A DNA stretch of 64,000 nt from Tagaea sp. Its GTDB lineage: Bacteria; Pseudomonadota; Alphaproteobacteria; CACIAM-22H2. The stretch spans positions 160,001 to 224,000 of the forward strand of contig CBDIIB010000003.1 of assembly GCA_965279525.1 (NCBI GenBank), written 5' to 3'. The notes under the pieces were generated by a model. The model saw nothing but the letters and a program-made list of their open reading frames with translations. It had not been told where the DNA came from and did not search any database. Made by a program: the position numbers and the translations under genes. Every line of letters starts with the position of its first letter. Within the stretch, counting starts at the first letter, position 1. This document shows positions 4,717 to 40,350 of this stretch, one piece after another.

Positions 4717-4745
4717 CAGTCCCGATAGCTCGGAACCTCATACCG

Positions 4746-10897: not shown

Positions 10898-10986
10898 TCC
10901 CCAAGGATTCGTCGGAGCGACCTATGACAGCACTTCGAACATAAATCTTAGTGGGCCGTAAGACCAGCGAGCCCGAAGGTAAGATT

Positions 10987-12183: not shown

Positions 12184-12206
12184 CAGATGATTGTCGCGAG
12201 GAATTC

Positions 12207-13400: not shown

Positions 13401-13430
13401 GTTCTGTCGAAAGTCGAACGGACTGACCTG

Positions 13431-13892: not shown

Positions 13893-14287
13893 CCGCTCCA
13901 GGTGTCTTCGTGGGTTTGGAACTGCCGCCGCTGCAGATCGAGCCGATATCCAGAAAAACGCTCGCCCTCTTTGCCGGCGCGTCTGGCGATCATCAACCGA
14001 CGCATATCGATATTGACGCTGCTAAGGCCAAGGGTCGTGACGACGTGATCGCCCACGGCATGCTTATGATGGCGTATCTCGGACGGATGCTGACGGACTG
14101 GGTGCCGCAGGAGAAGATCCGGTCCTACACGGCCCGATTTGTCGCGATCACCCCTGTATCCGCTCAACCGACCTGCACCGGGCGAATCATTGCAATCAAG
14201 GACGGGCTTGCGACTATCGAGCTCGCGATCAATCTGGCCAATGGAACGACCGTGGTGCGAGGCGAAGCAGTCATCGATATCTGCTGA
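13889..14287 (+). CDS. MaoC family dehydratase (HadB-like)
   Basis: FAGASGDHQPTHID, IAHGML; ATGA overlap with the upstream gene. Confidence 0.88.
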   Translation: MTAPGVFVGLELPPLQIEPISRKTLALFAGASGDHQPTHIDIDAAKAKGRDDVIAHGMLMMAYLGRMLTDWVPQEKIRSYTARFVAITPVSAQPTCTGRIIAIKDGLATIELAINLANGTTVVRGEAVIDIC

Positions 14288-14333
14288 GCGTCGCTCACAG
14301 TCACCGAGTCAAATTCTCATCACGGAGCTGCCT

Positions 14334-15272: not shown

Positions 15273-15292
15273 GTACGGGAGAGGGATCGATC

Positions 15293-16675
15293 GTGAGCGC
15301 TAAATCGGAGTCAACTCCCAGCAAGCAGACGCGGCGCGAGACTACGCGAGCGGTCGCGAGCTTTGCCGCGGACTCGAAGTTCGCCTCTCTGCCAGAAAAT
15401 GTGAAAGCCGAAGCAGCGCGCGGCTTCATGAACTGGCTCGGCTGCGCGTTGGGAGGGTGTCAGGAGCCGGCTGTGGGAATTGCCGCAGCGATGATGGCCG
15501 AGACGGGAGGCAAGCCGCAGGCGTCGATCATTGGTCATGGGCAGTGCACCGATGTTGCTGGTGCTGCATTCGTGAATTGCATCAGTTCGAGTATTCTCGC
15601 GTTCGACGATGCCCACTTGCCGACCGTGACACATCCAACGGGTCCGGTGGCATCGTCGCTATTCGCCTTGAGCGAGACGCTTGCTACGTCAGGGGAGGAC
15701 TTCCTCAACGCCTTTGCTGTGGGCGTCGAAGTCACATGCCGACTGAGTAACGTGCTGCTGCTTCCGCCCTCCAGGTTCAACCTTGGTTTCTATGTTACCG
15801 GGCTGACTGCCCCGATCGGCGTCGCCGTAGCGGTCGGGCGCCTGCTCAAGCTCGATGAGCAGCGTATGAGCTGGGCGATTGGCCTTGCAGCCTCTCAATC
15901 CTCCGGCTTCCGCTCGACACATGGGACGATGACCGCACACTTCCGTCCAGGACATGCCACGCGAGCGGGCGTATGGGCCGCGCTGTTGGCTGCCAAAGGG
16001 TTTACTTCGTCGGAGGATGCCTTGGAGGCCGAGAAAGGCTTCTTTGACGTGTTTTCGGCCGGAGCGGATCTCGGGCACGCGGTGGATGGTCTTGGTCAGC
16101 GTTACGAGCTGCTCCTGAACGCGTACAAACCCTATCCGTGTGGAATCGTAATCCATCCGACCATTGATGCATGTCTTGAGCTCAGGCAACAGCTCAGCCC
16201 GGCTTCCAATCTGAAAAGGGTTTCGATCAGAGTTCACCCTATGGCGCTAAGCCTCACCGGGATTCGAACACCAACTGACACTTTGGAATGTCACATAAGC
16301 ATTTTCCACTGGGTGGCTGTGTCACTCCTGCGCGGTCATGCGGGATTGGCCGAGACCACGCAGGAGTGCATTGATGATCCTCAAGTTTCTGCGCTGCGTC
16401 TGCTCGTCGACGCAACTCCGGATCCGGCACTCAAGAAAGGCGAGTCGATCGTAGAGGTCACGCGATCCGATGGCGTTGTCGTTAGAGAGCATGTCGTAAA
16501 TGCGCGCGGCAGTATCGAGAGGCCGATGTCCGACACTGAGTTGAACGCTAAGTTCAGGGAGCAGTCGAATCTTGTCCTCTCAGCCCATGCCACGGAAGAT
16601 CTGCTGTTAGCATCGAGAGGCGCAGCCGCACTGAGCGACGTCGGCAGAGAGATCGCAGCCATCTTGCATAAGTGA
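15293..16675 (+). CDS. MmgE/PrpD family protein
   Basis: FDDAH...HP, KPYPCGIVIHPTID, RGSIERPMS. Confidence 0.92.
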   Translation: MSAKSESTPSKQTRRETTRAVASFAADSKFASLPENVKAEAARGFMNWLGCALGGCQEPAVGIAAAMMAETGGKPQASIIGHGQCTDVAGAAFVNCISSSILAFDDAHLPTVTHPTGPVASSLFALSETLATSGEDFLNAFAVGVEVTCRLSNVLLLPPSRFNLGFYVTGLTAPIGVAVAVGRLLKLDEQRMSWAIGLAASQSSGFRSTHGTMTAHFRPGHATRAGVWAALLAAKGFTSSEDALEAEKGFFDVFSAGADLGHAVDGLGQRYELLLNAYKPYPCGIVIHPTIDACLELRQQLSPASNLKRVSIRVHPMALSLTGIRTPTDTLECHISIFHWVAVSLLRGHAGLAETTQECIDDPQVSALRLLVDATPDPALKKGESIVEVTRSDGVVVREHVVNARGSIERPMSDTELNAKFREQSNLVLSAHATEDLLLASRGAAALSDVGREIAAILHK

Positions 16676-16745
16676 TCAGTTTTCGGGTTTAGTCGGTGTC
16701 AAAATATTATGTAATTTCATTGTGATAGAGGTCGTTTTAGTTATT

Positions 16746-16786
16746 TGGTCTGATATTATTGCCTTGACAGAATAATGGTATGACAT
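16746..16786 (+). promoter_or_regulatory. AT-rich promoter region with TTGACA and two GntR-like boxes
   Basis: TGGTCTGATAT 16746-56, TTGACA 16764-69, TGGTATGACAT 16776-86. Confidence 0.45.
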
Positions 16787-16867
16787 TTTACTCGACAGTC
16801 TAAAACAATAGCGCTTCCACGTCGGTCCTGCGCCGATAAGTGGTCAAAGCGCGAAAGGTCCAGGGAG

Positions 16868-17731
16868 ATGATTGCGCAGCGCCCGACGGCAGATCCGGTA
16901 ACTGAAAAAGGCGATCGCGTTCGCGGCAAGGTCGCGATCGTTACCGGCGCAGGCTCAACAGCCCCAGGCATCGGCAACGGGCGAGGGGCTGCGCTATTGC
17001 TGGCGCGTCATGGTGCCAAGGTTGGCCTCATCGACTCTGACGAAGCCTCCGTCAATGAAACCGCGCAGATGGTCGCGGACGACGGTGGAGAAGCGCTCGT
17101 TATTCGTGCCGACGTGACCAATGTCGATGACTGTCAGAAAGCAGTGAGCGCTACCGTTGAGCGCTTCGGCGGCCTCGACATTTTAGTCAACAATGTTGGT
17201 ACCAGTAAGGTTCGCGGCAACGCAGTGGATATCGATCTGGACGAATGGGACCGCGGCATGCAGGTCAACGTCAAGTCGATGGTGATGATGGTCCGCTTCG
17301 CTGTTCCCGAGATGAAAAAGCGAGGTGGCGGCTCGATTATCAACATCTCTTCCATTACGGCATTGCATGGCGGGCACCCCAATCTGCTGTATCCGACATC
17401 GAAGGCCGCTGTAGTGCATCTGACCCGCACAATGGCCGGCCATCATGGCCCGGATGGTATCCGGGTGAACTGTGTGGCGCCGGGTTTTGTCTATACGCCG
17501 GTCGTCTATGGCCGCGGCCTAGAGGAAGGCGTGCGCGAAATGCGCCGGGATGCTTCGGCGCTTAAGACGGAGGGAACGGGATGGGATGTCGCTTACGGCA
17601 TTCTGTATCTCGCAAGTGATGAGGCGCGTTGGATTACGGGTGTCCTTCTTCCGATTGATGCCGGTGTGAGCTCCATCTCGCCCCATTTTCAGACGAGCGC
17701 CCGACGGCTTGACTGGAAGGCAAAGGCGTAG
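16868..17731 (+). CDS. SDR family oxidoreductase
   Basis: TGAGS..PGIGNG, NNVG, YPTSK, IRVNCVAPG. Confidence 0.93.
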   Translation: MIAQRPTADPVTEKGDRVRGKVAIVTGAGSTAPGIGNGRGAALLLARHGAKVGLIDSDEASVNETAQMVADDGGEALVIRADVTNVDDCQKAVSATVERFGGLDILVNNVGTSKVRGNAVDIDLDEWDRGMQVNVKSMVMMVRFAVPEMKKRGGGSIINISSITALHGGHPNLLYPTSKAAVVHLTRTMAGHHGPDGIRVNCVAPGFVYTPVVYGRGLEEGVREMRRDASALKTEGTGWDVAYGILYLASDEARWITGVLLPIDAGVSSISPHFQTSARRLDWKAKA

Positions 17732-17829
17732 ATGGGTCGCCCGAAGACTCAGCGGGTCGCAGGCCGACAGCGCCGCGTGTTCGAAGAGCGGATCGTCTCT
17801 GCGTTCCGATCTGTTCACGGGAGAACGTC

Positions 17830-18639
17830 ATGAATCTTGTTTCAAGCGATTTACTAGGCGCGAAGAACGCGATGCAGAACGTCAACCCCAAAAACGAGAT
17901 CGATTTCGATCAGGCGGTCGTTCGATTTGGAAATCTCACGGCGATGGGGCCGACGACCCTTTCGGTCAAGCGCGGAGAATTTCTCGCAATTGTCGGACCA
18001 AGCGGCTGTGGAAAATCGACGCTGCTGAATTTGGTTGCCGGCACTCTTAATCCCTCATCGGGCTCAGTGCTATATCGGGGCGCGCCGGTCAACGGGCCGA
18101 ACCGTGACGTCGGCTATATCACGCAGAAAAACTACTGTCTGCCCTGGCGAACCGTAGAGCAGAACATTGCTCTACCTCTCGAGTTGCGTGACTTTTCTAA
18201 GAGCGAGATCGCTGACCGAGTCTCTGCAGCGATAAAGAAGATCGGGCTTAGCGGTTTCGAACGATCCTATCCGCGGCAGCTCTCTGGCGGAATGCTCCAG
18301 CGGGTTCTCATTGCTCGCACCCTGGCCTATCAACCGACTACATATCTAATGGATGAGCCATTTGGCAGTCTGGATGCACAGTTGCGACTGCGCATGCACA
18401 ACGATCTGCTCGATTTGTGGGCCGAGTCTGGCGCCACTTTCGTGTTTGTCACACACGATCTTCATGAGGCAATCACTCTGGCGGACCGTGTCGTCGTAAT
18501 GTCGCATCGTCCCGGAACACCAAAGCTCGTCCTCGATATCGACCTCAAGCGGCCTCGTGATGTCGTTCACGTGCAAGCCAATCCGGCTTTTGGCCGATAC
18601 TTCACCCAATTGTGGGAAGCCTTGGATGTCCAGATCTAG
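17830..18639 (+). CDS. NitT/TauT-type ABC transporter ATP-binding protein
   Basis: GPSGCGKST, LSGGMLQR, MDEPFGSLDAQ, VTHD. Confidence 0.95.
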   Translation: MNLVSSDLLGAKNAMQNVNPKNEIDFDQAVVRFGNLTAMGPTTLSVKRGEFLAIVGPSGCGKSTLLNLVAGTLNPSSGSVLYRGAPVNGPNRDVGYITQKNYCLPWRTVEQNIALPLELRDFSKSEIADRVSAAIKKIGLSGFERSYPRQLSGGMLQRVLIARTLAYQPTTYLMDEPFGSLDAQLRLRMHNDLLDLWAESGATFVFVTHDLHEAITLADRVVVMSHRPGTPKLVLDIDLKRPRDVVHVQANPAFGRYFTQLWEALDVQI

Positions 18640-18659
18640 CCATCAAGGAGTATCTCGCC

Positions 18660-19532
18660 GTGGATAGCTCAAGAGCATTACCGGCCGAGGCTGCCTTGGT
18701 CTCGAATGAGACGAGTCCGCAATCAGGCGGCCGTAAGTCGGCAATGCGGCGGTCGCTCGCAAATGGCCGACTGCTTGTCTACCAGGTGCTGTTGCTGCTA
18801 GCGATGATGCTGCTCTGGGAATTCAATTCTTATCATTTCGATCTGGAGTTCTGGGTCAGCAGCCCGAGCGCCATCCTTCGCAGCCTCGTCAAATGGCACG
18901 CTACGGGATTGCTGTGGAGCGATCTGCAGATCACGCTTCTGGAAGCATCAGTAGGTTTCCTCGTGGGAGCCTTTGTAGGCGCGGTTTTAGGGTTCCTGTT
19001 GGGTTGGGTTCGGCTGCTTGGCGATCTTTTGGAGCCGTTCGCGCTGTCGCTCTATACGGTGCCCAAGATCGCATTGGCGCCTCTCTTTATCCTGTGGTTT
19101 GGAATTGGCCCGATCAACAAGATGATGTTCTCCGCCATGCTTGTCGCCATGATGGTCTTCATCACCACATTCCAGGGTGTCAGGCAGGTCGATCGAGATC
19201 TGGTGGCGAATGTTGTACTTCTCGGTGCCAGACCTTTCCAGACTTGGACTAAGATTGCGATCCCGTACGCGGCTGTCTGGATTTTTACCGGACTTCGCAT
19301 CGGGCTGCCATACGCCCTGATCGGTGCGATCGTCGGCGAATTCATCGCGGCGGACCGTGGTGTCGGCTACCGAATCAAGGAAGCCACATCGTTCTTCGAC
19401 ACGTCAGCGGTCTTTGCCGGAATTCTTGTGCTTATGTTCATCAGTACGATGCTCCTGATGTGCCTGCGTCTTGTGGAGCGTCATGTGCTCCGCTGGCAAA
19501 CGTTGGACCTTTCGGCAACGCGCCGGGAATAG
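18660..19532 (+). CDS. NitT/TauT-type ABC transporter permease
   Basis: VPKIALAPLFILWFGIG, GAIVGEF; GTG 18660 after AAGGAG. Confidence 0.92.
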   Translation: MDSSRALPAEAALVSNETSPQSGGRKSAMRRSLANGRLLVYQVLLLLAMMLLWEFNSYHFDLEFWVSSPSAILRSLVKWHATGLLWSDLQITLLEASVGFLVGAFVGAVLGFLLGWVRLLGDLLEPFALSLYTVPKIALAPLFILWFGIGPINKMMFSAMLVAMMVFITTFQGVRQVDRDLVANVVLLGARPFQTWTKIAIPYAAVWIFTGLRIGLPYALIGAIVGEFIAADRGVGYRIKEATSFFDTSAVFAGILVLMFISTMLLMCLRLVERHVLRWQTLDLSATRRE

Positions 19533-19535
19533 GGA

Positions 19536-20561
19536 ATGCGCGCCGCACAGCTCACGATTCGGGAGCAGGGCAGCTTCGCAGTCGGCGGCGCCGTGGTGAA
19601 GAATCCAGGCCGTTACGACCCAACGAAATTAAGCCCGGATGGACAGACGCTGCATGGAGACCATGCCTATGTTTTCTATCAGGTCCCCGTGGCGGCCCGG
19701 AAATTCCCCCTGGTGCTCCTTCATGGAAATTCGCAGTTCTCGAAGACTTGGGAAACCACCCCGGACGGCCGCGAGGGGTATCAGAACATCTTTTTGCGAC
19801 GCGGCTTCAGCGTTTACCTAGTCGACCATCCGCGACGGGGAAACGCCGGGCGCAGCACGCTTCCGGCGACGCTGACTGCTACACCCGAAGATCAAATCTG
19901 GTTCGACAGGTTCCGGGTGGGCGTATGGCCCGAGTTCTTTTCTGGGGTGCAGTTCTCCGGAACACCGGAGACCCTGAATCAATACTTCCGGCAGATCACG
20001 CCAGATACCGGCCCCTTCGATGTGCAAGTGGCATCGGATGCCGTCGCTGCCCTTTTTGACAAAATCGGACCTGCCGTTCTGGTAAGTCATTCGCAAGGTG
20101 GGGGCGTCGGTTGGTTTTCGGCAATCAAGAGCGCGAGCATCCGCGCAATCGTATGTTACGAGCCGGGAAGCAATTTTCCCTTCCCGCCGGGTGAAGTGCC
20201 CCTGCCGATGCCTAGCGCCGGCGGGACACTCGCGGCCGTTGGCGTGCCGATGTCGGACTTCAAGCGGATCACAAGGATTCCGATCGTCATCTTCTACGGC
20301 GACAATATTCCAGAGCAACCGGTGGCGAACGTCGGTCAGGACCAATGGCGCGTACGTCTGGCGATGACCAGGCTGTGGGTTCAAGCCGTGAATCGCCATG
20401 GTGGTGATGCCGCCCTTGTCTGTCTGCCGGAGATCGGCATTCGAGGAAATACCCACTTTCCCTTCTCCGATCTCAACAATGTCGAGATTGCAGACGAGAT
20501 GTCAAAATTCCTGAGTGCAAAGAAGCTGGATGTGTTTTGCGATACTCAACAACAAACATAA
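19536..20561 (+). CDS. alpha/beta fold hydrolase
   Basis: EQGSFAVGG, WETTPDGREG, SHSQGG elbow, GNTHFPFSDLNN. Confidence 0.88.
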   Translation: MRAAQLTIREQGSFAVGGAVVKNPGRYDPTKLSPDGQTLHGDHAYVFYQVPVAARKFPLVLLHGNSQFSKTWETTPDGREGYQNIFLRRGFSVYLVDHPRRGNAGRSTLPATLTATPEDQIWFDRFRVGVWPEFFSGVQFSGTPETLNQYFRQITPDTGPFDVQVASDAVAALFDKIGPAVLVSHSQGGGVGWFSAIKSASIRAIVCYEPGSNFPFPPGEVPLPMPSAGGTLAAVGVPMSDFKRITRIPIVIFYGDNIPEQPVANVGQDQWRVRLAMTRLWVQAVNRHGGDAALVCLPEIGIRGNTHFPFSDLNNVEIADEMSKFLSAKKLDVFCDTQQQT

Positions 20562-20576: not shown

Positions 20577-21584
20577 ATGATCAACGTATCGAGACTCAAG
20601 ACTTGGGCCTTCACGGGGTTCCTGATTGTGACGGCGGTCTTCATCGTGCCGCATACGTCTTCCGCTCAGGAACTACGGAAGATCAGTATTGCGCTTAGTT
20701 CTTCGAGCATTCCTGCCGGAGCTGCGCGGATCGCCAAGGAAATGGGGTTTTTCGAAAAGCACGGCCTGTCAGCGACGGTCACTCCGATGGATACTGGCTC
20801 CGTCGCCTCGGCCGCGCTTATGTCGGGTGCTGTGAATTTCGTTACAACCGGCCCGAGCGACGTCGTGGTCGCTCAGGGCCGAGGACTGAAAATCGTCGCA
20901 CTGACAGCAGTGTATCGAGGCTTTGCTGCCACTATCGTTCTCTCCAAGGAAGCCGCCGCGAAAACCGGCGTTTCACCAACAGCTCCTATCGAAGCACGAC
21001 TCAAGGCGCTCAACGGCTTGAAAATCGCGACGACGAGCGCCAGCTCGACGTTCGCAATCGCTCCGAAGGCTGCAACGGAAGGCGTGGGTGCGAACATTAA
21101 CTTCGTCTATATGGCACAGCCGGCTATGGTCGCAGCACTGCAGAGAGGTATAGTTGACGGCATTACGGTATCCGCGCCTTATTACGTGCCGCCTGTCCTC
21201 GCTGGCACGGGCGTAATCTGGGTTAGCGGCCCGAGAGGCGATTTTCCAAAAGCTGCTGCCCCGGTGAATTCGGTTGTCGTGCTTGTGCAGCAAGCCTTCG
21301 CTACCGCCAATCCTGAACTGATGAAGCAGGTCAGTGCTTCTTTTGCGGATGTCTGGAAGGCCATCGATGAACGCCCTGCCGATGTGAAGGCTGCGATGGC
21401 CAAAATCTGGCCGGACCTCGATGCCAAGACTATCGACTTGGTCTTTGAGACCGAAGGTCCCGGATTCAAGGCGCAACCGTTGACGGTCGACGAAATGGCG
21501 CATGAGATTGCCTTCATGAAACTGGGCGGGGCCGATCTGCCGCGTGGTGACAGCCTCGATCCCGCCGCCATGATCTTTCGGTGA
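20577..21584 (+). CDS. ABC transporter substrate-binding protein (NMT1/SsuA-like)
   Basis: signal peptide; AKEMGFFEKHGL; RBS GGAGGAG. Confidence 0.9.
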   Translation: MINVSRLKTWAFTGFLIVTAVFIVPHTSSAQELRKISIALSSSSIPAGAARIAKEMGFFEKHGLSATVTPMDTGSVASAALMSGAVNFVTTGPSDVVVAQGRGLKIVALTAVYRGFAATIVLSKEAAAKTGVSPTAPIEARLKALNGLKIATTSASSTFAIAPKAATEGVGANINFVYMAQPAMVAALQRGIVDGITVSAPYYVPPVLAGTGVIWVSGPRGDFPKAAAPVNSVVVLVQQAFATANPELMKQVSASFADVWKAIDERPADVKAAMAKIWPDLDAKTIDLVFETEGPGFKAQPLTVDEMAHEIAFMKLGGADLPRGDSLDPAAMIFR

Positions 21585-21602
21585 AATTGCGATAGCAACA
21601 AG

Positions 21603-21645
21603 CTGCTCCTCACCCGGTCGACGGTGCAATCCGGGTGAGGAGCGG
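21603..21645 (+). terminator. GC-rich hairpin after the ABC operon
   Basis: GCTCCTCACCCGG...CCGGGTGAGGAGC 13-bp stem; no U-tract. Confidence 0.5.
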
Positions 21646-21928
21646 GAATGCCCGTCATCAGAACAATCAGGACGTATCGAGGCCGTTGTTATCGCAGGCT
21701 TGGCGCATCTGGCGGCGAATTTCGAGGCCACGCTGCTCAACCGTGCCATTTGACGGTGGCCGCTTCATTGGGTTCATCATCTTGGCGACCAGCTCCAAGT
21801 TGGCCGTCTGGGATTTTGACCGATTGCGGCGTATGTTGATGGCCTAAAAGTCTGAGATTATCTTGATTAGTTGGAGGACTTGCCCCATTAGGGCTCTAAG
21901 AGTCTCCAACTACCATTGGATACACATC

Positions 21929-21951
21929 AGCGTGATCGGAATCGGCTCTAG
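21929..21951. repeat. left 23-bp inverted repeat of the PdxA/TRAP cassette
   Basis: AGCGTGATCGGAATCGGCTCTAG is the exact reverse complement of 28490-28512; contains the pdxA stop. Confidence 0.95.
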
Positions 21952-22967
21952 GCCGCCTTGGCGCGCCTTGCGGAGCCCATGCGGCAGGCGATCCGGAAGG
22001 CCTGACGCGTCGCCTCGGGGTTGGCGATGCCCTGACCGGCGATCTCGTAGGCCGTGCCGTGGGCCGGCGTGCAGATCGGGATCGGCAGGCCGCCGAGCAC
22101 CGTCACGCCCTTGTCGAAGCCCATCAGCTTGATGGCGATCTGTCCCTGGTCGTGGAACATGCTGAGCACGGCGTCGAACTTGCCGTCACGCGCCCGCAGG
22201 TAGACCGTGTCCGACGGGAACGGCCCCTCGACGGCGAACTGCATCGCCTTGGCCTTCTCGACCGCGGGCGTGATCACATCGATCTCCTCGCGCCCGAAAT
22301 TGCCGCCGTCACCGGCATGCGGGTTGAGCGCCGCCACGGCGATGCGCGGCCGGGCAAAGCCCGCTGCCTGCATGGCGTTGTGGGTCAGGCGCAGTGCGTC
22401 GAGAATTCGGTCCACGGTGATCAGCGAGCTCACCTTGGCCAGCGGCACGTGCGACGTGACGCGCGCGTTCCAGATCTTCTCCAGCACGTTGAACTCGCCA
22501 TAGGTGCCCTTGTGCGCGAGCACGTCGGCGGCGAGTTGCAGCTCGTCCTCGTAAGGGTTGCCGGCGAGGCGCAGCGCCGTCTTGTTGAACGGCGTGAAGC
22601 ACAGCGCGTCGACCAGACCGCGCCTGGCCAGGTCGAGACCGTGCTTGAAATTGGTCATGGCGAAACCGCCGCCTTCCGCCGAGGCCTTCTGCAATGTGAT
22701 GGCGGCGGGATCAAGGTGGCCGAGATCGAGAAACACAGGCTGGCCCAAAGCAAGCCGCGCATCCTCGGCGCGCTTCACCACCGGCAGCTTCAGCGACACC
22801 TTGGCGATTCGCTCGCCTTCGGCCAGGACGCGGCGGTCGCCGATCACGAGGATGGCGGCCTGACCTGCCGTCTCCGGCATGGCAAGCAGCCGGGCCATCA
22901 GCTCCGGGCTGATGCCGCAGGGATCCCCCATCACCAGACCGACACGCGCGGGTAGAACGTCGCTCAT
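21948..22967 (-). CDS. pdxA: PdxA family NAD-dependent dehydrogenase (PdxA2/TphB-like)
   Basis: MGDPCGISPE, TSHVPL, LNPHAGDGG, MFHDQGQIAIK, TPAHGTAYEIAG. Confidence 0.9.
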   Translation of the reverse strand: MSDVLPARVGLVMGDPCGISPELMARLLAMPETAGQAAILVIGDRRVLAEGERIAKVSLKLPVVKRAEDARLALGQPVFLDLGHLDPAAITLQKASAEGGGFAMTNFKHGLDLARRGLVDALCFTPFNKTALRLAGNPYEDELQLAADVLAHKGTYGEFNVLEKIWNARVTSHVPLAKVSSLITVDRILDALRLTHNAMQAAGFARPRIAVAALNPHAGDGGNFGREEIDVITPAVEKAKAMQFAVEGPFPSDTVYLRARDGKFDAVLSMFHDQGQIAIKLMGFDKGVTVLGGLPIPICTPAHGTAYEIAGQGIANPEATRQAFRIACRMGSARRAKAA

Positions 22968-23018
22968 GTTTCCTCCGTGAGGCCCCCTTTATGACTCAGG
23001 CGGCCGGGGCAAGTCATC

Positions 23019-23035
23019 CTGAATGTTGCATTCAG
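23019..23035. promoter_or_regulatory. inverted repeat CTGAATG-TTG-CATTCAG, candidate operator for the cassette GntR
   Basis: perfect 7-bp arms in the divergent pdxA/dctP intergenic region. Confidence 0.45.
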
Positions 23036-23110
23036 AATTCAGAAGGGGCAGAGTCCCAATCGCGACGCCTCAATGGCGCGCCGAAACAAGGGAGAAACGC
23101 CGTGATATCG

Positions 23111-24109
23111 ATGAAATCGCTCACGCCGATGCTCGCCGCCTGTGCGGTCGCCATCGGCACCCTGACCTTTGCGAGCGCCGCCTCGGCGCAGACCGTCCTT
23201 CGCTACGCCCATGTCGGCGCGGACGGTGAGTCTCAGACCCGCTACGCCACCGAGCTGGCGGCGCTGATCAGGCAGAAAACCGAAGGCCGCGTGGACATCC
23301 GCGTGTTCCCCGGCTCACAGCTCGGCAACCTCAGCGAGATGGTCAACGGGGTGCGCATCGGCTCGATCGCCATGGCGCATCACGACTTCGCCTCCCTCGA
23401 CCGCATCGTTGAGGATGTCGGCGTATTCAACTCGCCGTTCATCTACCGCGACGCCCGTCATGCGATGAAGGCGACCGACGCCAAGACCTCGCCGGTGCTG
23501 CAGGACATCAACAAGCAGCTCGTCGAAAAGGGCGGTGTGCGCATCGTCGGCAATTTCTATCGCGGGGCACGCCAGCTCTCGGCCAAGTTCGCGGTGAAGA
23601 GCCCTGATGATCTCAAGGGCCGCAAGATCCGCGGCGTCCCCATCAAGCTGTGGAACACCATGCTCGGCGGCATGGGCGCCATCCCCACACCGGTCGAGAT
23701 CACCGAGCTCATGACGGCGCTCTCCACCGGCGTGGTCGATGGGCAGGAGAACCCGCTCAACAACATCATCGCCCAGCGCTTCTACGAGGTGCAGCCCTTC
23801 GTTATGATGACCAGCCACATGGAATCGGTGCTGGCCCTGTTCATCAACGAAGCCGTCTGGCAGCGCCTGCCGGCTCGCGACCGCAGCCTGTTCGAGGAAG
23901 CGGCCGCCGAAATGGCAGGGCGCTCGCTGCAATGGGCGGACGAGGGCGTGAAGAAGGATCAGGACTTCCTGCGCTCCAAGAACGTGACCATCATCGAGGC
24001 CAAGGACGGCCTCAACATCAACGCCTTCCGCACCGCCGTCGGCGCGCAGATGGCGAAGGACTTCCCCAACTGGACAGGCCACATCCAGAAGATCCAGGCC
24101 ATCCAGTAA
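23111..24109 (+). CDS. dctP: TRAP transporter substrate-binding protein
   Basis: signal peptide; FPGSQLG, DLKGRKIR, GVVDGQENP. Confidence 0.95.
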   Translation: MKSLTPMLAACAVAIGTLTFASAASAQTVLRYAHVGADGESQTRYATELAALIRQKTEGRVDIRVFPGSQLGNLSEMVNGVRIGSIAMAHHDFASLDRIVEDVGVFNSPFIYRDARHAMKATDAKTSPVLQDINKQLVEKGGVRIVGNFYRGARQLSAKFAVKSPDDLKGRKIRGVPIKLWNTMLGGMGAIPTPVEITELMTALSTGVVDGQENPLNNIIAQRFYEVQPFVMMTSHMESVLALFINEAVWQRLPARDRSLFEEAAAEMAGRSLQWADEGVKKDQDFLRSKNVTIIEAKDGLNINAFRTAVGAQMAKDFPNWTGHIQKIQAIQ

Positions 24110-24123
24110 CGCAAGCCGCATAG

Positions 24124-24161
24124 CCGCTCGTCATGCCGGCCTTTGCCGGCATGACGAGCGG
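24124..24161. repeat. REP-like palindrome between dctP and dctQ
   Basis: CCGCTCGTCATGCCGGC-CTTT-GCCGGCATGACGAGCGG, 17-bp perfect stem. Confidence 0.8.
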
Positions 24162-24189
24162 AGCGGATCCGCCGCCCGCGAGACCCTCC

Positions 24190-24672
24190 ATGATCCTCCA
24201 TTACATCCGCAGCGCCTGCGTGGTGATTGGCTGTTTCGCGCTGGCCGCGATTGTCGTGTTGCCCGCCAGCCAGATCGTGCTGCGCGAGCTCGGTGCGCCC
24301 TTCATTGGCATGGAGGAGCTGGCGCGCTACTTCATGATCGTTGTCACCTTCGTCGGCATTCCACTGGTCAACCACGAAGGCGGCCATATCCGCATGGACG
24401 AGATTCACCGCTTCATCCCGCTCTCGGCATCGCAGGTTCTGCGGGTAATCATCGCCATCGTCTCCGGCACCGCCTTTGGCGTCGTGGTCGTCGCCATCTA
24501 CTCGTCGGTGCGTATCACAATGGGCAGCTCGACGCCGACCCTCGGCATCCCCTTCTGGCTGTTCAACGCACCGGCCATGTTCGGGTTGGCGCTGGGTGCT
24601 CTCGAGTTCGTCCTGCAGGCCTGGCGAGTTGCCCGTGGCCAGGACGACGCGGCCGCACCGCGGATCGTCTGA
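24190..24672 (+). CDS. dctQ: TRAP transporter small permease
   Basis: EELARY, GGHIRMD; 4 hydrophobic segments. Confidence 0.9.
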   Translation: MILHYIRSACVVIGCFALAAIVVLPASQIVLRELGAPFIGMEELARYFMIVVTFVGIPLVNHEGGHIRMDEIHRFIPLSASQVLRVIIAIVSGTAFGVVVVAIYSSVRITMGSSTPTLGIPFWLFNAPAMFGLALGALEFVLQAWRVARGQDDAAAPRIV

Positions 24673-24681
24673 GAGGCCACC

Positions 24682-25959
24682 ATGGACGCCACCGTTCTCG
24701 TCATCGCGACCTTCGTCGTACTCTTCATCCTCGGCTTCCCGGTGGTTATCGCCGTGTTGATGCCCTCGATCATCTACGTGCTGTGGGAAGGCATCCCGCT
24801 GGCCATGGTCGGCCAGCGCACGGTCTACGCTCTCGACTCCTTCCCGTTGATGGCGGTGCCGATTTTCATTTTCGTCGGTGCCCTGATGAACTCGTCGGGC
24901 ATCACCACGCGCATCTACAAATTCGCCGCTACGGCGTTCGGCCGCCTGCCCGGAGGCCTCGCCCAGGTCAACATCGCCGGCAGCCTGATCTTCTCCGGCA
25001 TGTCGGGCGCCGCTCTGGCCGATGTCGGCGGCCTCGGCCGGGTCGAGATCAAGGCAATGAAGGAGCACGGCTTCAAGCCGGCCTACGCCTCGGCCCTGAC
25101 CTGCGCCTCGGCCATCGTCGGGCCGATCTTCCCGCCGAGCATCCCGCTGATCATCTACGCCTCCGTCGCCAATGTCTCAAGCGTGCAGCTTTTGCTCGCC
25201 GGCATCGGCCCGGCGCTGATCTGCGTCCTCATGCTCTCGATCACCGTGGCCGTCGTCGGCATCATCGGAAATCACCCGCGCGCCGCGCGCTGGCCGACGA
25301 TCGGCGAAGTGTGGCGCGACTTCGTCCCCGCATTCCCCGCTCTGTTCACGCCGGTGCTGCTGATCAGCGGTATGCTGCTGGGCTACTTCACGCCCACCGA
25401 GGCCGCGGCGGTCACCGTCGTCTACATCCTCCTGGTCAGCGCCTGCTACGGCGAGTTCGACCTGCACCACATCTATCTGGCAGCCATCGACACCATCAAA
25501 GGCACGGCGGCGATCATGGCCATCGTCGCGGTAGCCGCGATGTTCGGCTGGATCCTCGCGGTCGAGCAGGTGCCGCAATGGTTCAACGGCTGGATTACCG
25601 GCATCAGCAACGACCCGCTTGTCCTGCTGCTGATCCTCAACGTCATCCTGCTGATCGTTGGTATGTTCATCGACAGCACCACGGCGACGCTGCTGCTCGT
25701 TCCCATCCTCTGCCCTCCCATCGTCGCCGCCGGCGTCGACCCGATTCAGCTCGGCCTGATCGTCATCTTCAACCTGATGATCGGCCTAGTGACACCGCCC
25801 ATGGGCCTGTCGCTGTTCCTGATGAGCGACATCGCCAAGGTGCCGATGCGCGAGATCCTCAAGGCGATGATCCCCTTCTATCCGCCCCTGCTGCTGACGC
25901 TGGCCATCATCACGCTGGTGCCGGAGGTGTCGCTGTGGGTTCCCGACCTTTTGAAGTAG
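24682..25959 (+). CDS. dctM: TRAP transporter large permease
   Basis: FSGMSGAALAD, PIFPPSIP, FTPTEAA, GLVTPPMG. Confidence 0.95.
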   Translation: MDATVLVIATFVVLFILGFPVVIAVLMPSIIYVLWEGIPLAMVGQRTVYALDSFPLMAVPIFIFVGALMNSSGITTRIYKFAATAFGRLPGGLAQVNIAGSLIFSGMSGAALADVGGLGRVEIKAMKEHGFKPAYASALTCASAIVGPIFPPSIPLIIYASVANVSSVQLLLAGIGPALICVLMLSITVAVVGIIGNHPRAARWPTIGEVWRDFVPAFPALFTPVLLISGMLLGYFTPTEAAAVTVVYILLVSACYGEFDLHHIYLAAIDTIKGTAAIMAIVAVAAMFGWILAVEQVPQWFNGWITGISNDPLVLLLILNVILLIVGMFIDSTTATLLLVPILCPPIVAAGVDPIQLGLIVIFNLMIGLVTPPMGLSLFLMSDIAKVPMREILKAMIPFYPPLLLTLAIITLVPEVSLWVPDLLK

Positions 25960-25966
25960 CGTAGGG

Positions 25967-26665
25967 ATGATGGCCAACCGCTCCGAGTCCCTGCCTGCCG
26001 CCGAGATCGTGCCCATACGGCGTGCGAGCCTGCACGATGAGGTGGTCAGCCGGGTGCGCGACATGATCGTCGAGGGCCAGTTCAGCTTCGGCACCCGCAT
26101 CCACGAAGGCCGGCTCTGCGAGCAGCTCGGCATCTCGCGCACGCCACTGCGTGAGGCACTCAAGGTACTCGCCACCGAGGGCCTGGTCGACCTCTCGCCC
26201 AACCGCGGCGCCATCGTGCGCGAGGTGACGCCCAAAGACATGCGCGACATGCTGCGGGTGCTGGGCCAGCTCGAGGCCCTGGCAGGCGAGCTCGCCTGCG
26301 CCAATGCCAGCGAGGCCGATATCGCCGCCATCCATGAGATGCACCAGCGGATGATGGAGCACTATACGGCCCGCAACCGCATGGAGTATTTCAAGCTCAA
26401 CCAGGCAATCCACAGCGCCTTCGTGCGCCTGGCCGACAACCCGACCCTGCAGGCGATGCACGAGACCCTGCAGGCGCGCATAAAGCGCATCCGCTACATC
26501 GGCAACGACCGCGACACGCAGTGGCACGACGCGGTCGACGACCACGAGAAGATGATCGCCGCCCTGCTCAAGCGCGACGGCCCGGCCCTCGGCCGGGTGC
26601 TGCGCTTTCATCTCGAGCGCACCTGGGACCGGGTGCGCAACGTGCTGGATGTCGGCGACCTCTAG
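25967..26665 (+). CDS. GntR family (FCD) transcriptional regulator
   Basis: LGISRTPLREALKVL, PNRGA. Confidence 0.95.
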   Translation: MMANRSESLPAAEIVPIRRASLHDEVVSRVRDMIVEGQFSFGTRIHEGRLCEQLGISRTPLREALKVLATEGLVDLSPNRGAIVREVTPKDMRDMLRVLGQLEALAGELACANASEADIAAIHEMHQRMMEHYTARNRMEYFKLNQAIHSAFVRLADNPTLQAMHETLQARIKRIRYIGNDRDTQWHDAVDDHEKMIAALLKRDGPALGRVLRFHLERTWDRVRNVLDVGDL

Positions 26666-26692
26666 AATGACGCGCGCGAAGGAGAGCATCCC

Positions 26693-27577
26693 ATGACGGC
26701 ACAGGCGGCGATCGGCTTCATCGGTCTTGGCCTGATGGGGCAGGGCTTCACCAGGCGCCTGGCGGAGAGTGGCTTCAAGGTTACCGGCTACGACATTGTC
26801 GCCGACAAGGTGAAGGCGGCCTCCGCCCATGGTGTCGCGGCAGCCGCCTCACCCGCCGCCGTGGCCGCCGCCAGCGACATCGTGCTTGTCTGCGTCACCT
26901 CGACCGATGCAGTGCAGGAAGCCGTGTTCGGCAGCGGCGGGATCGCCGAGACCCCCGGTACAGGCAAGGTGCTCGTCGACCACTCGACCACCGAGGTCGA
27001 GGCCACGAAGCAGTTTGCCGCCGACCTGTTGAAGCGCTCGGGCATGAAATGGGTGGACGCGCCGGTGTCCGGCGGCCCGGGGGCCGCCGCATCCGGCTCG
27101 CTCGCCATCATGGCCGGCGGCAACGCGGACGCCATCAGGCAGGTCGAGCCGGTGATGGCAAGACTGGCGGCGAAATTCACCCCTATGGGCGACGTGGGTG
27201 CCGGCCAGATCACCAAGATGATCAACCAGGTGCTGGTGCTGACCAACTACTGCGTGATCGCCGAAGCCATCAGGCTGGGCGAGAAATGCGGCATCGATGT
27301 TGCGAAGATTCCGGAGGCGCTGGCCACCGGTCATGCCGGCAGCAATCTTCTCAAGGACGTGACGCCGCGGCTGGTCGGCCGAGACTTCGCGCCGCGCGGC
27401 TATATCCGCCAGGTGCTCAAGGACCTCGACATGGTCCATGACCTCGCCAAGGAGGTGAAGGCACCCACCCCCATGGTCTCTCAGGCCGCGTCTCTCTACC
27501 GCCTGATGGTCGCCCGCGGCCACAGCGAGCTCGATGCCTGCGCGGTGATGCGCCTCTATCTCGACGAACCCGTCTGA
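26693..27577 (+). CDS. 3-hydroxyisobutyrate/tartronate-semialdehyde reductase family dehydrogenase
   Basis: IGFIGLGLMG, DAPVSGG, GAGQITKMINQ. Confidence 0.92.
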   Translation: MTAQAAIGFIGLGLMGQGFTRRLAESGFKVTGYDIVADKVKAASAHGVAAAASPAAVAAASDIVLVCVTSTDAVQEAVFGSGGIAETPGTGKVLVDHSTTEVEATKQFAADLLKRSGMKWVDAPVSGGPGAAASGSLAIMAGGNADAIRQVEPVMARLAAKFTPMGDVGAGQITKMINQVLVLTNYCVIAEAIRLGEKCGIDVAKIPEALATGHAGSNLLKDVTPRLVGRDFAPRGYIRQVLKDLDMVHDLAKEVKAPTPMVSQAASLYRLMVARGHSELDACAVMRLYLDEPV

Positions 27578-27584
27578 TCCGGTC

Positions 27585-28493
27585 ATGGCAGGCCTCGAGA
27601 TCGTCGACGCGCACCACCATTTTTGGGACCTCGACGGCCCCCTGCACTACCCGTGGCTCGAGGATGCGCCGCTAGCGACGTTCCGCTACGGCGACTACTC
27701 CGCCATTCGCCGCTCCTATCTGCCGCAGGACTTCCGCCACGACACGGCCCGCCATAACGTCGTCGCGACCGTGCACATGGAGGCGGAGGTGCGGCACGAC
27801 CAGGAAGTCGCCGAGACGCGCTGGATCCACGATATCGCCGAGCGCCACGGCTTGCCGACCGCCTGTATCGGTCACGCCCGTTTCGAGTCGGAGGACATCG
27901 CGGCGGTGCTAAAGGGGCATGCCGCCTATCCACTCATGCGCGCCATCCGCCAGAAGCCGGCGGCTTCGCGCTCGGCCATAGAGATCGTCAGAGGCGCACC
28001 CGGCTCCATGGGCGACCCGGTCTGGCGACGCGGCTACGCCCGCCTCGCCGATCACGGGCTGCACTACGAGTTGCAGACACCCTACTGGCATCTTCCTGAG
28101 GCGGCGGAGCTGGCGCGCGCCTTCCCGGATATTCGCATCCTGCTCAACCACACCGGTGTGCCCCACGATCGCAGCGCGGCGGGTGTCGCGGCCTGGCGGG
28201 AAGGGTTGGCCGCCTTTGCCGCCGAGCCCAATACGCGGATCAAGATTTCCGGCATCGGCGAGGCGGGGCAGACGTGGACCGTCACATCCAACCGGCCCAT
28301 CGTGTTGACCGCCATCGAGCTCTTTGGCGTCGACCGCTGCCTCTTCGCCAGCAATTTCCCGGTCGACAGCCTCTGCGGCAGTTACGACGCGATCTTCGAC
28401 GGCTTCAAGGAGATCGTCGCCCACATGCCGGATGCCGACCAGCGGAAGCTGTTCCGCGACAACGCGCTTCGCGAGTACCGGATCCGCCTCTAG
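27585..28493 (+). CDS. amidohydrolase_2 family lactonase-like protein
   Basis: DAHHHFWD, VHMEAE, LNHTG, KISG, FASNFPVD; stop supplied by the right inverted repeat. Confidence 0.9.
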   Translation: MAGLEIVDAHHHFWDLDGPLHYPWLEDAPLATFRYGDYSAIRRSYLPQDFRHDTARHNVVATVHMEAEVRHDQEVAETRWIHDIAERHGLPTACIGHARFESEDIAAVLKGHAAYPLMRAIRQKPAASRSAIEIVRGAPGSMGDPVWRRGYARLADHGLHYELQTPYWHLPEAAELARAFPDIRILLNHTGVPHDRSAAGVAAWREGLAAFAAEPNTRIKISGIGEAGQTWTVTSNRPIVLTAIELFGVDRCLFASNFPVDSLCGSYDAIFDGFKEIVAHMPDADQRKLFRDNALREYRIRL

Positions 28494-28512
28494 AGCCGAT
28501 TCCGATCACGCT
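28490..28512. repeat. right 23-bp inverted repeat of the PdxA/TRAP cassette
   Basis: CTAGAGCCGATTCCGATCACGCT, perfect reverse complement of 21929-21951. Confidence 0.95.
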
Positions 28513-28610
28513 TCGGTCTGGCCGGCGTTCCGTTGAACTCCAAGTATCCTTTGGGGATCGATGGGGGCATCCGGGGTTCTGGTGACAGAAATCTGATCGA
28601 AAATCCAGCC

Positions 28611-28636
28611 TGCTTGACAGCTCTCAATCAGTGGGT
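28611..28636 (+). mobile_element. degenerate att-like scar resembling the tRNA-Lys(CTT) anticodon region
   Basis: TGCTTGACAG-CTCTCAATCAGTGGGT, 21/26 identical to 55316-55341. Confidence 0.45.
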
Positions 28637-28700
28637 TTGACGGAAAATCCGGGCGGCAAAATTCGCCTGGTTCTTAGTTCATGAAGGCTAACACCACGAC

Positions 28701-28910
28701 TACTTCGCAACACGCGCACCTCGATCTCCGTCCGACCTTGATCAAGTGATGCAGTTGCGATGCTTCTGTCGAGTAAATCTAAGCAGCCGGCTCCGGGTTC
28801 CGAGGAATTGCTATTGAGCTGTTCGGATTGTCGCCTCGAATGCTATCCGGCTCTGGTCGCCAAGCGTCGAGTACCTGAGACGCATGCCGTAGAATTTCTC
28901 GATACAGTCG
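28701..28910 (+). repeat. 210-bp degenerate direct repeat, copy 1
   Basis: ungapped match to 40351-40560, 151/210 identical by hand count. Confidence 0.85.
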
Positions 28911-29130
28911 AAAACGCCGACGCGTGCTTCGACACCTGAGAGATGGATATTCCGACTGACGCGCTCGGCGAGATAACGTCCTCGATGGCCGCATCGCATC
29001 GATCGGTACGGGACATGTTCATTGGGCACGCGACATCCTGGTCGACGACCAGCCGCCAAAATGCCTCGCCGTTATGCTGGCTGCTGCGATCCGAGTGCCG
29101 GAGTCCTGCCACGCCGCCTGCGAACTCGGC
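28784..29130 (-). pseudogene. IS3-family transposase (OrfB) 3' remnant with degenerate right end
   Basis: frames read HSDRSSQHNGEAFWRL..DQDVACPM and EARVGVFDCIEKFYGMRLRYSTLGDQSRIAFE, like IS3 HSDRGSQY and FDYIERFYN.RRRHSTLG..SP..FE. Confidence 0.8.
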
Positions 29131-29212
29131 AATGTTGGCGAAGCCGCGTTGGACGTGTCGGTCATTCGTTATTGCGGCGCCACTTTGCACCGCCAATTGC
29201 GCCTCGATACAG

Positions 29213-29274
29213 ATGGCAGTACTGCCATTTCACTGCCAAACTGAACCCCATTCCAACCCCATTCCACTGCCAAA
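29213..29274. repeat. clustered short repeats, candidate integrase arm-type sites
   Basis: palindrome ATGGCAGTACTGCCAT 29213-28; CACTGCCAAA at 29231 and 29265; tandem AACCCCATTCC. Confidence 0.55.
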
Positions 29275-29365
29275 TCGACCCCATACGAGCACTGTGGACG
29301 GAGGGTGGGGGTCGCAAGTTGTTGACTTAGCGAGCAGAAAATGGCCTATTTTTCGGTACCTAAGA

Positions 29366-29410
29366 TTCGGGAGCTAGGGGCCGGAGGTTCGAATCCTCTC
29401 GCTCCGACCA
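29366..29410 (+). mobile_element. att site: 3' half of tRNA-Pro(CGG), not an intact tRNA
   Basis: TTCGGGA anticodon loop, GGAGG-TTCGAAT-CCTCT T-arm, CGCTCCG-ACCA end; no CGGAGCG 5' strand or D-arm upstream. Confidence 0.85.
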
Positions 29411-29511
29411 AATTTTTCCAGTGACTTAGCCGTCATTTGATCCGCGGAAGGTCTCCGAAGACCAATTCGCGTCGGTGTCCAGGATCTCCGGCAAAAAGGC
29501 GACTCGCGTCG

Positions 29512-30531
29512 ATGACTTCAAGCCATTCGGCCATGGCGACCGAGACCGCTGAAATTCCCCGCGTCCTTGCAGAAATCGTCGCGCGGCGTGCGTCGATTGC
29601 CGAACTGGCCGGTCGCATCGACGTGCGGTCGGCGGCGGTTGCCGTGCTATGCGGGCGCGGGAGCTCGGGGCATGCGGCAACGTACCTGCGTTACCTCATC
29701 GAGACGCGTCTGGGAATCCCCGTATCTTCCGCAGCGCCATCCGTTTCGACCGTGTTCGGCGCCAAGCTCAAACTCACCGGCGCGCTGTTCGTCGTCATAT
29801 CGCAGTCCGGGAAAAGCCCGGACCTGGTTGCGGCGACGAAGGCTGCTCGGGCGGGTGGAGCCCAGACGGTCGCAATCGTCAACGAGGCGGAATCGGCCGT
29901 CGCTATGGCGGCCGAACATGTGCTTGCGTTGCAGGCCGGGCGCGAAAGGTCCGTTGCCGCCACGAAATCGGTTGTCGCGTCGATGTTCGCGGGCGCCGAA
30001 CTGGTTGCCGCTCTTGCCGACGATTCCAAGCTCCAGAGCGCGCTCGCCCGGCTGCCGGATCGGACGACGTCGGGATTGCGTCTCGATTGGGGAAGCGTGA
30101 GCGAAGCGCTGCAGAACGCATCTTGTTTATATACGACATCGCGCGGGTTCGGCCTCGGCCCCGTGCGCGAACTCGCTCTCAAATGTGCCGAGACGCTGAG
30201 ATTGCCGGCACTTGCCTACAGTGCGGCGGAACTGCTCCATGGTCCGCGCGCGGCAGTCACGACCGGCACGCCGGTTCTCGCATTGCGCCTGGACGACGCC
30301 AGTGCAAGCGGGATCGATGCGCTAGCGCGCGATCTCGTCGCTTCCAAGGTTCCGCTGTTCCTTGCCGGCGGACCGGCTTCTGGCCTCCCCTGGATCGGCG
30401 ACGATCATCCGGCAACTGACGCGATCGCGATGCTCGCACCTGCGTATCTGATGATCGAGCGGGCGGCCCGAATGATGGGATACGATCCCGATCGTCCGCC
30501 ACATCTGTCGAAAGTGACCGAAACTCTCTGA
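29512..30531 (+). CDS. SIS domain protein (NagB-II/FrlB-like sugar-phosphate deaminase or deglycase)
   Basis: GRGSSGHAA, ISQSGKSPDL, SVAATKS, ELALKCAE, ELLHGP, PPHLSKVTETL. Confidence 0.9.
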   Translation: MTSSHSAMATETAEIPRVLAEIVARRASIAELAGRIDVRSAAVAVLCGRGSSGHAATYLRYLIETRLGIPVSSAAPSVSTVFGAKLKLTGALFVVISQSGKSPDLVAATKAARAGGAQTVAIVNEAESAVAMAAEHVLALQAGRERSVAATKSVVASMFAGAELVAALADDSKLQSALARLPDRTTSGLRLDWGSVSEALQNASCLYTTSRGFGLGPVRELALKCAETLRLPALAYSAAELLHGPRAAVTTGTPVLALRLDDASASGIDALARDLVASKVPLFLAGGPASGLPWIGDDHPATDAIAMLAPAYLMIERAARMMGYDPDRPPHLSKVTETL

Positions 30532-40265: not shown

Positions 40266-40350
40266 GCTCGAACGCCTGTTTCAGGTTCCTGTAGACGTCA
40301 ACGGCCCGGCGGACGCGCCGGCTGATATCTTCCAAGGCGGCGGTATCGAT

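Follow-up and report, generated by a model that had tools for sequence, protein, structure and literature searches.

Probable relic ends of IS630-family elements on the stop codons of a horizontally acquired TRAP/PdxA-family gene cassette in Tagaea sp.

The window analysed here is a stretch of 64,000 nt of Tagaea sp. (contig CBDIIB010000003.1, positions 160,001 to 224,000), and our subject is a gene cassette within it that is flanked by two 23-bp inverted repeats, termed arms below. The studied genome, G000, is 4,347,249 bp in size and consists of 5 contigs; the contig with the window is abbreviated C3, and coordinates without this prefix are those of the window. The cassette carries genes of a tripartite ATP-independent periplasmic (TRAP) transporter, and its two outermost genes stop within CTAG tetranucleotides, which are discussed below as insertion targets. 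The seven genes are:

21948..22967, minus strand, PdxA-family dehydrogenase paralog (PF04166, 7.7e-85; below every PdxA equivalog cut-off), with its TAG stop in a target CTAG
22991..24109, plus strand, DctP, solute-binding subunit of the TRAP transporter (Pfam, NCBIfam)
24133..24672, plus strand, DctQ, TRAP small permease (Pfam)
24682..25959, plus strand, DctM, TRAP large permease (Pfam, NCBIfam)
25967..26665, plus strand, regulator of the GntR/FCD family (Pfam)
26693..27577, plus strand, beta-hydroxyacid dehydrogenase, like tartronate-semialdehyde reductase or L-threonate dehydrogenase (NAD_binding_2/11; under the equivalog cut-offs)
27585..28493, plus strand, Amidohydrolase_2 (Amidohydro_2) protein, lactonase-like (Pfam, NCBIfam), with its TAG stop in a target CTAG

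All NCBIfam equivalog scores of the cassette proteins are under the cut-off, which points to a predicted regulon for the uptake and catabolism of hydroxy- or sugar acids that includes a PdxA paralog, not the housekeeping pdxA. No recombinase was identified among the seven genes by Pfam, and there is no Rfam match within 21,000–30,000. The G+C content at third codon positions (GC3) is 0.83–0.91 in the cassette, 0.60–0.66 in the five genes to its left and 0.69–0.80 in three genes to its right. An earlier account made from the letters alone, referred to as the sequence-only reading, had noted both the lack of a recombinase gene and the more G/C-ending codons inside, and both are borne out. The stop-to-stop and greedy open reading frame (ORF) sets tried as a genome-wide GC3 background were contaminated by wrong frames, such as a false frame over dctM with a GC3 of 0.44, and no percentile is claimed.

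The left arm, AGCGTGATCGGAATCGGCTCTAG, occupies 21929–21951 on the plus strand, and its exact reverse complement lies at 28490–28512. As the same account had stated, both sides lose their identity at the same base: outside, CATC precedes the left arm and TCGG follows the right one; inside, GCCGCC follows the left arm and CGCCT precedes the right one. Of the 182 inverted-repeat pairs in 21000–29600, no other is both long and perfect, and the pairing of the arms is absent from dinucleotide shuffles (0 matches in 100). The 23-mer has two sites only in G000, even at ≤5 mismatches, and no 14-mer of the arm recurs anywhere else in the genome; the abundant half-length repeat that would make the pairing coincidental is not seen. 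Searching G000 with the 16-mer core of the terminal inverted repeat (TIR) at 3 mismatches was uninformative, as its 103 matches are GC-rich background save for both arms. Both TAG stops, that of the pdxA-family ORF (21950–21948, minus strand) and that of the amidohydrolase (28491–28493, plus strand), lie within the inner CTAGs, again in agreement with the first description, and a TC dinucleotide is present outside both arms (21927–21928 and 28513–28514). The left arm is crossed by contigs of runs X22 and X24 that show 0 differences, and in the metagenome run X1 a contig of 279 nt aligns to 21,935–22,172 with 8 differences, 41 unaligned letters preceding the match. No piece among those listed from four contig runs spans the right arm. 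None of the 13 joints listed (four runs, all contigs) ends at either arm, and such contigs cannot exclude rare excision or inversion.

As the best explanation, to which we give a probability of about 0.8, the arms would be relic end-stubs of insertion sequences (ISs) of the IS630 family, sitting on native CTAG stop sites of a TRAP/PdxA-family regulon that was acquired horizontally. Examples of the family are ISY100 and IS630 of Shigella sonnei. When 50 family genomes were searched at ≤3 mismatches, the 23-mer was present in three of them: G000 (2 sites), G006 (16 sites) and G059 (1 site). The arm terminus is 21/23 identical to the end of the 16-copy IS of G006 and to the right end of the IS in G059. 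All of the G006 copies (16/16) read ...GGATACAGCTCTACGTGATCGGAATCGGCTCTAG, and the ~125 nt upstream are common to all; unrelated DNA starts immediately 3' of the CTAG, and most of the copies lie ~125 nt from a contig end. Such a pattern is the hallmark of a multicopy IS with the terminus ...GGCTC followed by TA(G). At the left ends of the G006 element, unique DNA and CTA are followed by GAGCAAATTCCGA... (9 distinct flanks). The G059 element is complete and has CTAG at both ends; one of its ORFs matches HTH_Tnp_IS630 and related HTH families, and the second matches DDE_3 (1.9e-32) and ends ...ECANYFAAAGYDAT directly before the repeat.

The 21-mer that is common to the window and G006 also occurs in 9 metagenome contigs. 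Three of these are the right ends of IS630-type ISs with a transposase; the other 6 are right ends of an element of ~155 bp that has no transposase and resembles a miniature inverted-repeat transposable element (MITE); its sole full copy (L067) sits between two CTAGs. Every sampled IS copy adjoins CTAG and then unique DNA, and both window arms abut TA within CTAG. Since the elements in G006, G059 and the metagenomes end in the same terminus, both arms are best assigned, by this likeness, to the termini of an IS630-family element (Tc1/mariner/IS630 superfamily). The repeats were thus rightly suspected to be terminal repeats of a transposon, and IS630 was among the families that the sequence-only reading had listed for checking. 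Tenzen and Ohtsubo in 1991 reportedly described, by the title of their paper, an IS630-associated composite transposon that prefers TA in 5'-CTAG-3'. Members of the family insert at TA, duplicate the TA and move by cut and paste, according to passages of one article (PMC2170065). As an observation of its own, two metagenome loci (L069 and L070) hold IS630-type elements in head-to-tail tandem with one CTAG between them (...GGCTCTAGAGCATTTTCC...); these are either IS dimers or adjacent insertions into a regenerated target.

The features assigned to the IS remnants are as follows:

21908..21928, plus strand, putative remnant of an IS630-family transposase gene, its decayed 3' part; ~6 final codons can still be recognised and read into the arm, with a trace of AACTAC (NY) at 21908–21913
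21929..21951, plus strand, left arm, a probable IS630 terminus of the right inverted repeat (IRR) type; 20 nt ending ...GGCTC, then the duplicated TA and the G of the native CTAG; body to the left
28490..28512, minus strand, right arm, the same probable IS630 terminus reverse-complemented; body to the right

The orientation of these termini was analysed with 26 elements (16 in G006, 1 in G059 and 9 from metagenomes). In 26/26 of them the body is on the (A/T)(G/A)CGTGATCGG side (AGCGTG or TACGTG), and host DNA starts past the CTAG. The CTAG of the left arm is on the cassette side, and that of the right arm likewise by symmetry. Because the body is on that side in all sampled elements, the cassette stands in the place of flanking host DNA for both arms; both IS bodies lay outside it, with their termini facing inward. 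The left flank is in frame with a TGA in the arm: at 21918–21935 it reads GGA TAC ACA TCA GCG TGA, that is, GYTSA and stop. The spacing from Gly-Tyr to the stop is the same as in AGYSST-stop of G006, AGYDAT of G059 and AGYSAT-stop or AGYVRT-stop of the metagenome elements, and at the DNA level the spacing from GG(A/T)TA(C/T) to TGA is shared by the window, G006, G059, L065 and L069. Read as the right end of an IS, the left stub of the window is ...GYTSA-stop followed by AGCGTGATCGG..., and the in-frame GYTSA confirms the predicted IS body to the left. Farther upstream the frame of the left flank is broken, and there is no tblastn match to the transposase.

On the right, an unrelated recurrent module starts 13 nt past the arm, and therefore at most ~33 nt of IS are left there. 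The common end-point of identity then marks the place where the right stub ends or turns into non-homologous subterminal sequence. The TC dinucleotides are present as the sequence-only reading had reported, and its suggestion that they might be a 2-bp target duplication fails: IS630 duplicates TA, and does so at its other edge, so that TC, on the truncated side of the stubs, is irrelevant. Just left of the IS stub there is an imperfect hairpin at 21870–21910 (GTTGGAGGACT ... AGTCTCCAAC); it encloses GGGCTCTAAGAG, whose faint likeness to two abutted IS630 ends is too weak to call.

The stop codons themselves are older than the ISs. The IS-free pdxA homologs of L020 (= G065) and G064 end in GCC TAG, and the IS-free amidohydrolase homologs of L021 (= G054) and G009 end in CTC TAG; in G064 and G065 the amidohydrolase ends in CTC TAA. 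As homologs without an IS end already carry C+TAG, the window CTAGs are native IS630 targets, and the IS supplies no more than the final G of either stop. With G as its first base and C as its last (TA, then GAGCC...GGCTC, then TA), the IS restores the TAG when it inserts. It had been proposed that the repeats supply both stop codons as a special feature; the IS-free endings contradict this.

We asked how often sampled elements adjoin stop codons. A coding-like ORF was defined as one of ≥100 codons with GC3 > 0.72 and a GC3 exceeding the G+C content at second codon positions (GC2) by > 0.15, and with a stop that coincides with the TAG in the target CTAG. Such an ORF was found at 10/34 independent IS/MITE ends and at 0/34 in each of two shifted control frames. 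The sample had been cleared of L034 and L036 (the window's own loci), L051 (a duplicate), L067 (flank <200 nt) and L070 (a duplicate flank). An earlier version of the test with the same exclusions used ORF length alone; with 20/34 versus 13/34 and 7/34 in the control frames it was too noisy, and it is superseded by the coding-like criterion. Landing on TAG stops is a general habit of this IS family. In G000, CTAG is ~9-fold rarer than the base composition predicts (1486 sites against 13,541), and therefore stop-codon contexts make up a large share of the available targets.

Copies of the cassette were searched for in 41 relatives and then in 50 family/order genomes; the order-level set consists of the same 50 genomes as the family set. 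A close copy is present in G009 only, with 92.6% identity over 21,922–28,494, and the order-level search gave no copy of >86% identity besides it. In PLSDB, megablast with 21,500–29,000 returned partial gene matches of 74–83% (best in Skermanella and Sinorhizobium) and no cassette copy. The flanks of the cassette in G009 and G000 are unrelated. Over 20 kb of its chromosome, G000 is for the most part 72–80% identical to G009 and 83–91% identical to G019, G013 and G017, three genomes from which the cassette is absent. Set against this chromosomal identity of ~72–80%, the 92.6% of the cassette shows horizontal transfer, as had already been supposed. Between the G000 and G009 cassettes the divergence by codon position is 4.0%, 1.8% and 14.6%, and 15/96 intergenic positions differ.

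The pdxA stop of G009 also adjoins a diverged IS630 end (17/23), together with a transposase remnant, ...CASDFSAAG.... The 6/23 differences fit a neutral divergence of ~15%, by which the IS end on the pdxA side is probably older than the split of the two copies. The block of homology between G000 and G009 ends at the two CTAG/IS-end positions, which fits the prediction of an IS-delimited unit. For the left flank (1–20,000) no ortholog was found in 5 congeners, and G019 and G013 are syntenic only from ~29,470–29,483, the block upstream of this point in them lying on another contig of G000. A simple empty site was not found among the relatives compared. In more distant homologs of the cluster (70–76% identity; L015 in G024, L021/L100 in G054 and L028/L101 in G053) the amidohydrolase is inverted relative to the other six genes; gene orientation at this end is not conserved among them.

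The cassette lies close to the border of a genomic island, whose right end has two features:

28526..28636, plus strand, putative truncated island-end module, a ~110-nt arm and the start of the 45-nt tRNA-Lys(CTT) 3' half; cut inside the att core; marks the end of the right IS remnant
29366..29410, plus strand, predicted attR, 45 nt that repeat the tRNA-Pro(CGG) 3' end perfectly and in direct orientation; right border of a ~99.5-kb island

The tRNA-Pro(CGG) gene is at C3:89801–89877, and the repeat is 45/45 between C3:89833–89877 and C3:189366–189410. A tyrosine integrase gene (Phage_integrase, 1e-17) adjoins the tRNA-Pro gene at C3:89891–91408 on the minus strand, and a weak MobA/MobL-like ORF is located at C3:92643–94886. 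These features delimit an integrative, possibly mobilisable, island of ~99.5 kb, which covers positions 1–29410 of the window. The attR repeat, the integrase and the restart of synteny place the cassette inside the right end of this island, 0.85 kb from its border.

The 0.85 kb right of the cassette is a mosaic of short modules that are found in 11/20 other congeners, and we interpret this island end as a patchwork of older island ends. The full form of the module at 28526–28636, a unit of ~155 nt, consists of a conserved ~110-nt arm starting with TTTCCGTCG and the 45-nt 3' half of tRNA-Lys(CTT), which is 44/45 identical to the G000 gene. Five congeners carry it, at 8 places altogether (4 of them in G018), with intact copies at L084–L087 and L092–L094. 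Three intact copies gave no Rfam match, and ARAGORN predicted no tRNA in the unit. It is read as the attR-type end of another, tRNA-Lys-targeting island family. A full copy is also present in G009, 45 nt from the amidohydrolase CTAG and in the opposite orientation. Two candidates from this region were rejected. The CTAG at 29,374 was ruled out as a second IS end, being inside the tRNA-Pro repeat. The right flank was ruled out as IS debris, since tblastn and six-frame reading gave no transposase trace and it is island-end material.

A search of G000 for DDE_3 (PF13358), reading through stops, gave 0 matches at E≤1, and tblastn with both transposase ORFs of G059 gave none. DDE_3 was seen in 4/21 genomes of the genus. 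Unlike the fragmented drafts, G000 is in 5 contigs and has no further end copies. Since G000 is now without an IS630 transposase, the arms are inert stubs.

The data show what the arms are and which way they point, that the CTAG sites are native, that a transposase is absent, and that the cassette was transferred horizontally and lies in a tRNA-Pro island; the following order of events may be inferred. Two copies of one IS lineage would have inserted into two existing CTAGs, the C+TAG stops of the outermost convergent genes. Insertion into C-TA-G would rebuild CTAG on both sides, and both genes would keep their TAG stops. Both ISs would face the cassette with the same IRR-type end, 3' of the transposase gene, which is the geometry of an inverted-IS composite transposon. 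Later the IS bodies would have been lost except for ~45 nt at the left end, the final transposase codons among them, and 20–33 nt at the right end. In our estimate the odds are about even that the two ISs once jointly moved the cassette as a composite transposon, as against having only inserted next to it.

Several observations weigh against our explanation of the arms as IS630 end-stubs around a transferred unit. Apart from the window's own genome, none of 185,579 species genomes has the exact 23-mer, and the exact terminus (AG before CGTGATCGG...) is in no other sampled genome; the source IS is unsampled. In general, little can be read from a missing transposase, as G006, with at least 16 IS copies, also has 0 DDE_3 matches because its IS body is unassembled. 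Neither G000 nor G009 has an intact flanking IS, an outer IS end or a target duplication around the composite unit. Nothing IS-like was found in the right flank beyond the 20-nt terminus by tblastn and six-frame reading, and this terminus may be an IRR, the left inverted repeat (IRL) of an IS with perfect TIRs, or a MITE end. In G009 the amidohydrolase side is a bare CTAG without an IS end, followed by unrelated DNA, which would need precise excision or transfer without the right-hand IS. If the arms were as old as the split, the neutral rate would predict ~3 differences between them, and their identity suggests a younger second insertion or a re-insertion. The insertion on the right, or else both of the stubs now present, may thus postdate the split.

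A possible, though less probable, alternative is that the arms are incidental IS630 stubs, from two or repeated independent insertions into the sole CTAGs on hand at the ends of the operon, and that the cassette travelled as cargo of tRNA-targeting islands or by recombination, never as a composite transposon. The position of the cassette favours this, 0.85 kb from the attR of a tRNA-Pro island with an integrase and a weak MobA/MobL match, and within 13–45 nt of the tRNA-Lys island-end module in G000 and G009. With CTAG rare and 10/34 insertions abutting stops, recurrent hits are expected, and the missing IS end on the amidohydrolase side of G009 agrees as well. The 93% homology of the two copies, however, ends at the CTAG/IS-end positions and does not run into shared island DNA, and the flanks are unrelated, which fits an IS-delimited unit better. 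It is very unlikely that the right arm arose from the left stub as a secondary copy, whether through gene conversion, a local inverted duplication or an inversion that broke within an IS end. Such an origin would explain both the identity of the two G000 arms across exactly 23 nt, against a left-arm ortholog in G009 that has drifted (6/23), and the lack of any transposase trace farther to the right. But the right arm sits exactly on a native CTAG, which G009 and L021 carry without interruption; target-specific insertion predicts this position and random duplication would not, and no other duplicated sequence accompanies the arm.

The two mechanisms of the sequence-only reading fare worse. A non-autonomous transposon with the arms as its own TIRs, mobilised in trans and leaving TC as target duplication, would account for the perfect 23-bp repeats, the lack of a transposase inside, the TC outside both ends and the horizontal transfer. 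We regard it as highly improbable, because the ...GGCTC/TA termini face the cassette (as the 26/26 elements indicate), no TA stands outside AGCGTG/CACGCT, and the left flank is transposase coding; in addition, the G009 copy has no right arm, its homology on the left side extends past the arm, and a matching TC is a 1-in-16 chance. The other mechanism was repeat-mediated gene capture, in which the arms are halves of post-stop hairpins, like repetitive extragenic palindromic (REP) sequences, and the regulon was cut out at the hairpin centres by an enzyme acting in trans. The arms do overlap stop codons and, joined head to head, form a perfect palindrome. Against this stand the complete absence of CTAGAGC(N0–60)GCTCTAG palindromes from G000 (0 genome-wide), the lack of any other copy of an arm 14-mer and hence of a repeat family, the 0 exact 23-mers in other species genomes, and the likeness of the arm to an IS630-type terminus. 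No match to the Y1 or REP-associated tyrosine transposase (RAYT; PF01797) was found in G000 at E≤0.01, the control being positive in 6/14 reference genomes; a look for co-occurring RAYT or IS630 genes in G000 is thus negative on both counts. This mechanism has next to no chance of being correct. A further idea is that the perfect inward-facing pair might be a working 'inside-out' substrate, both CTAG borders of which an IS630 transposase supplied in trans would cut. Congeners carry IS630-type elements. We consider the idea very doubtful; if it were true, the regulon could be released or deleted, or the replicon mobilised, and CTAG stops would be reusable docking or exchange points for operons.

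Among known systems, the full IS630-family relatives have an HTH and DDE_3 transposase, short TIRs and insertion at the TA of CTAG with duplication of TA, and their transposase stop is inside the right repeat, as in the left arm of the window; different from them, only ~20–45 nt of each element remains here, and no transposase gene lies between the repeats. Composite transposons of the Tn5/Tn10 type have cargo between inverted copies of one IS with the same end inward, and in the window two inward-facing ends of one IS lineage bracket a transferred cargo with IS-bounded homology. The IS bodies and outer ends, however, are gone, and with them any outer target duplication; there is no transposition-competent unit, so that past activity as a composite is an inference. 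An IS630-derived MITE is represented by the ~155-bp metagenome element with the identical 21-nt terminus, and the CTAG of L067 ends the reading frame upstream of it; MITE termini, however, face outward around a short core, whereas those of the window face inward around 6.5 kb of genes. With tRNA-targeting islands the locus shares the 45-nt tRNA-Pro repeat 99.5 kb from the gene, the adjacent tyrosine integrase and the synteny that resumes past attR; the island is the context carrying the cassette, not the source of the 23-bp arms. REP sequences and bacterial interspersed mosaic elements (BIMEs) with RAYT have many palindromic copies and a Y1 gene, unlike the unique arm of G000.

No new mechanism is required for the locus. 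Its main value is a corrected annotation, from a 'transposase-free cassette' to what are probably two IS630 end-stubs on native CTAG stops. It is also a clean natural illustration of two known properties, of how CTAG targeting puts IS630-type elements on TAG stops while the gene retains its stop, and of IS pairs that bracket a catabolic operon exchanged between distant congeners.

Further traces of island junctions were noticed in the window. About 85–140 nt inside attR there are direct repeats at 29225–29248 and 29259–29282 (CCATTTCACTGCCAAACTGAACCC-like, 83% identical); the ~120 nt around them are 84–86% conserved beside the tRNA-Pro repeat in G012 and G017, and the two repeats may be arm-type binding sites of the integrase. 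The synteny with G019 and G013 ends at ~40,243, where the GC drops to 0.56–0.58 (40243–42000); 40347–40560 is 72% identical to the right flank of the cassette (28697–28910), and a second island-type junction probably lies near there. Lastly, 44 nt at 55317–55360 (C3:215317–215360) are 88.6% identical to the junction of the tRNA-Lys unit and may be an att-like remnant.

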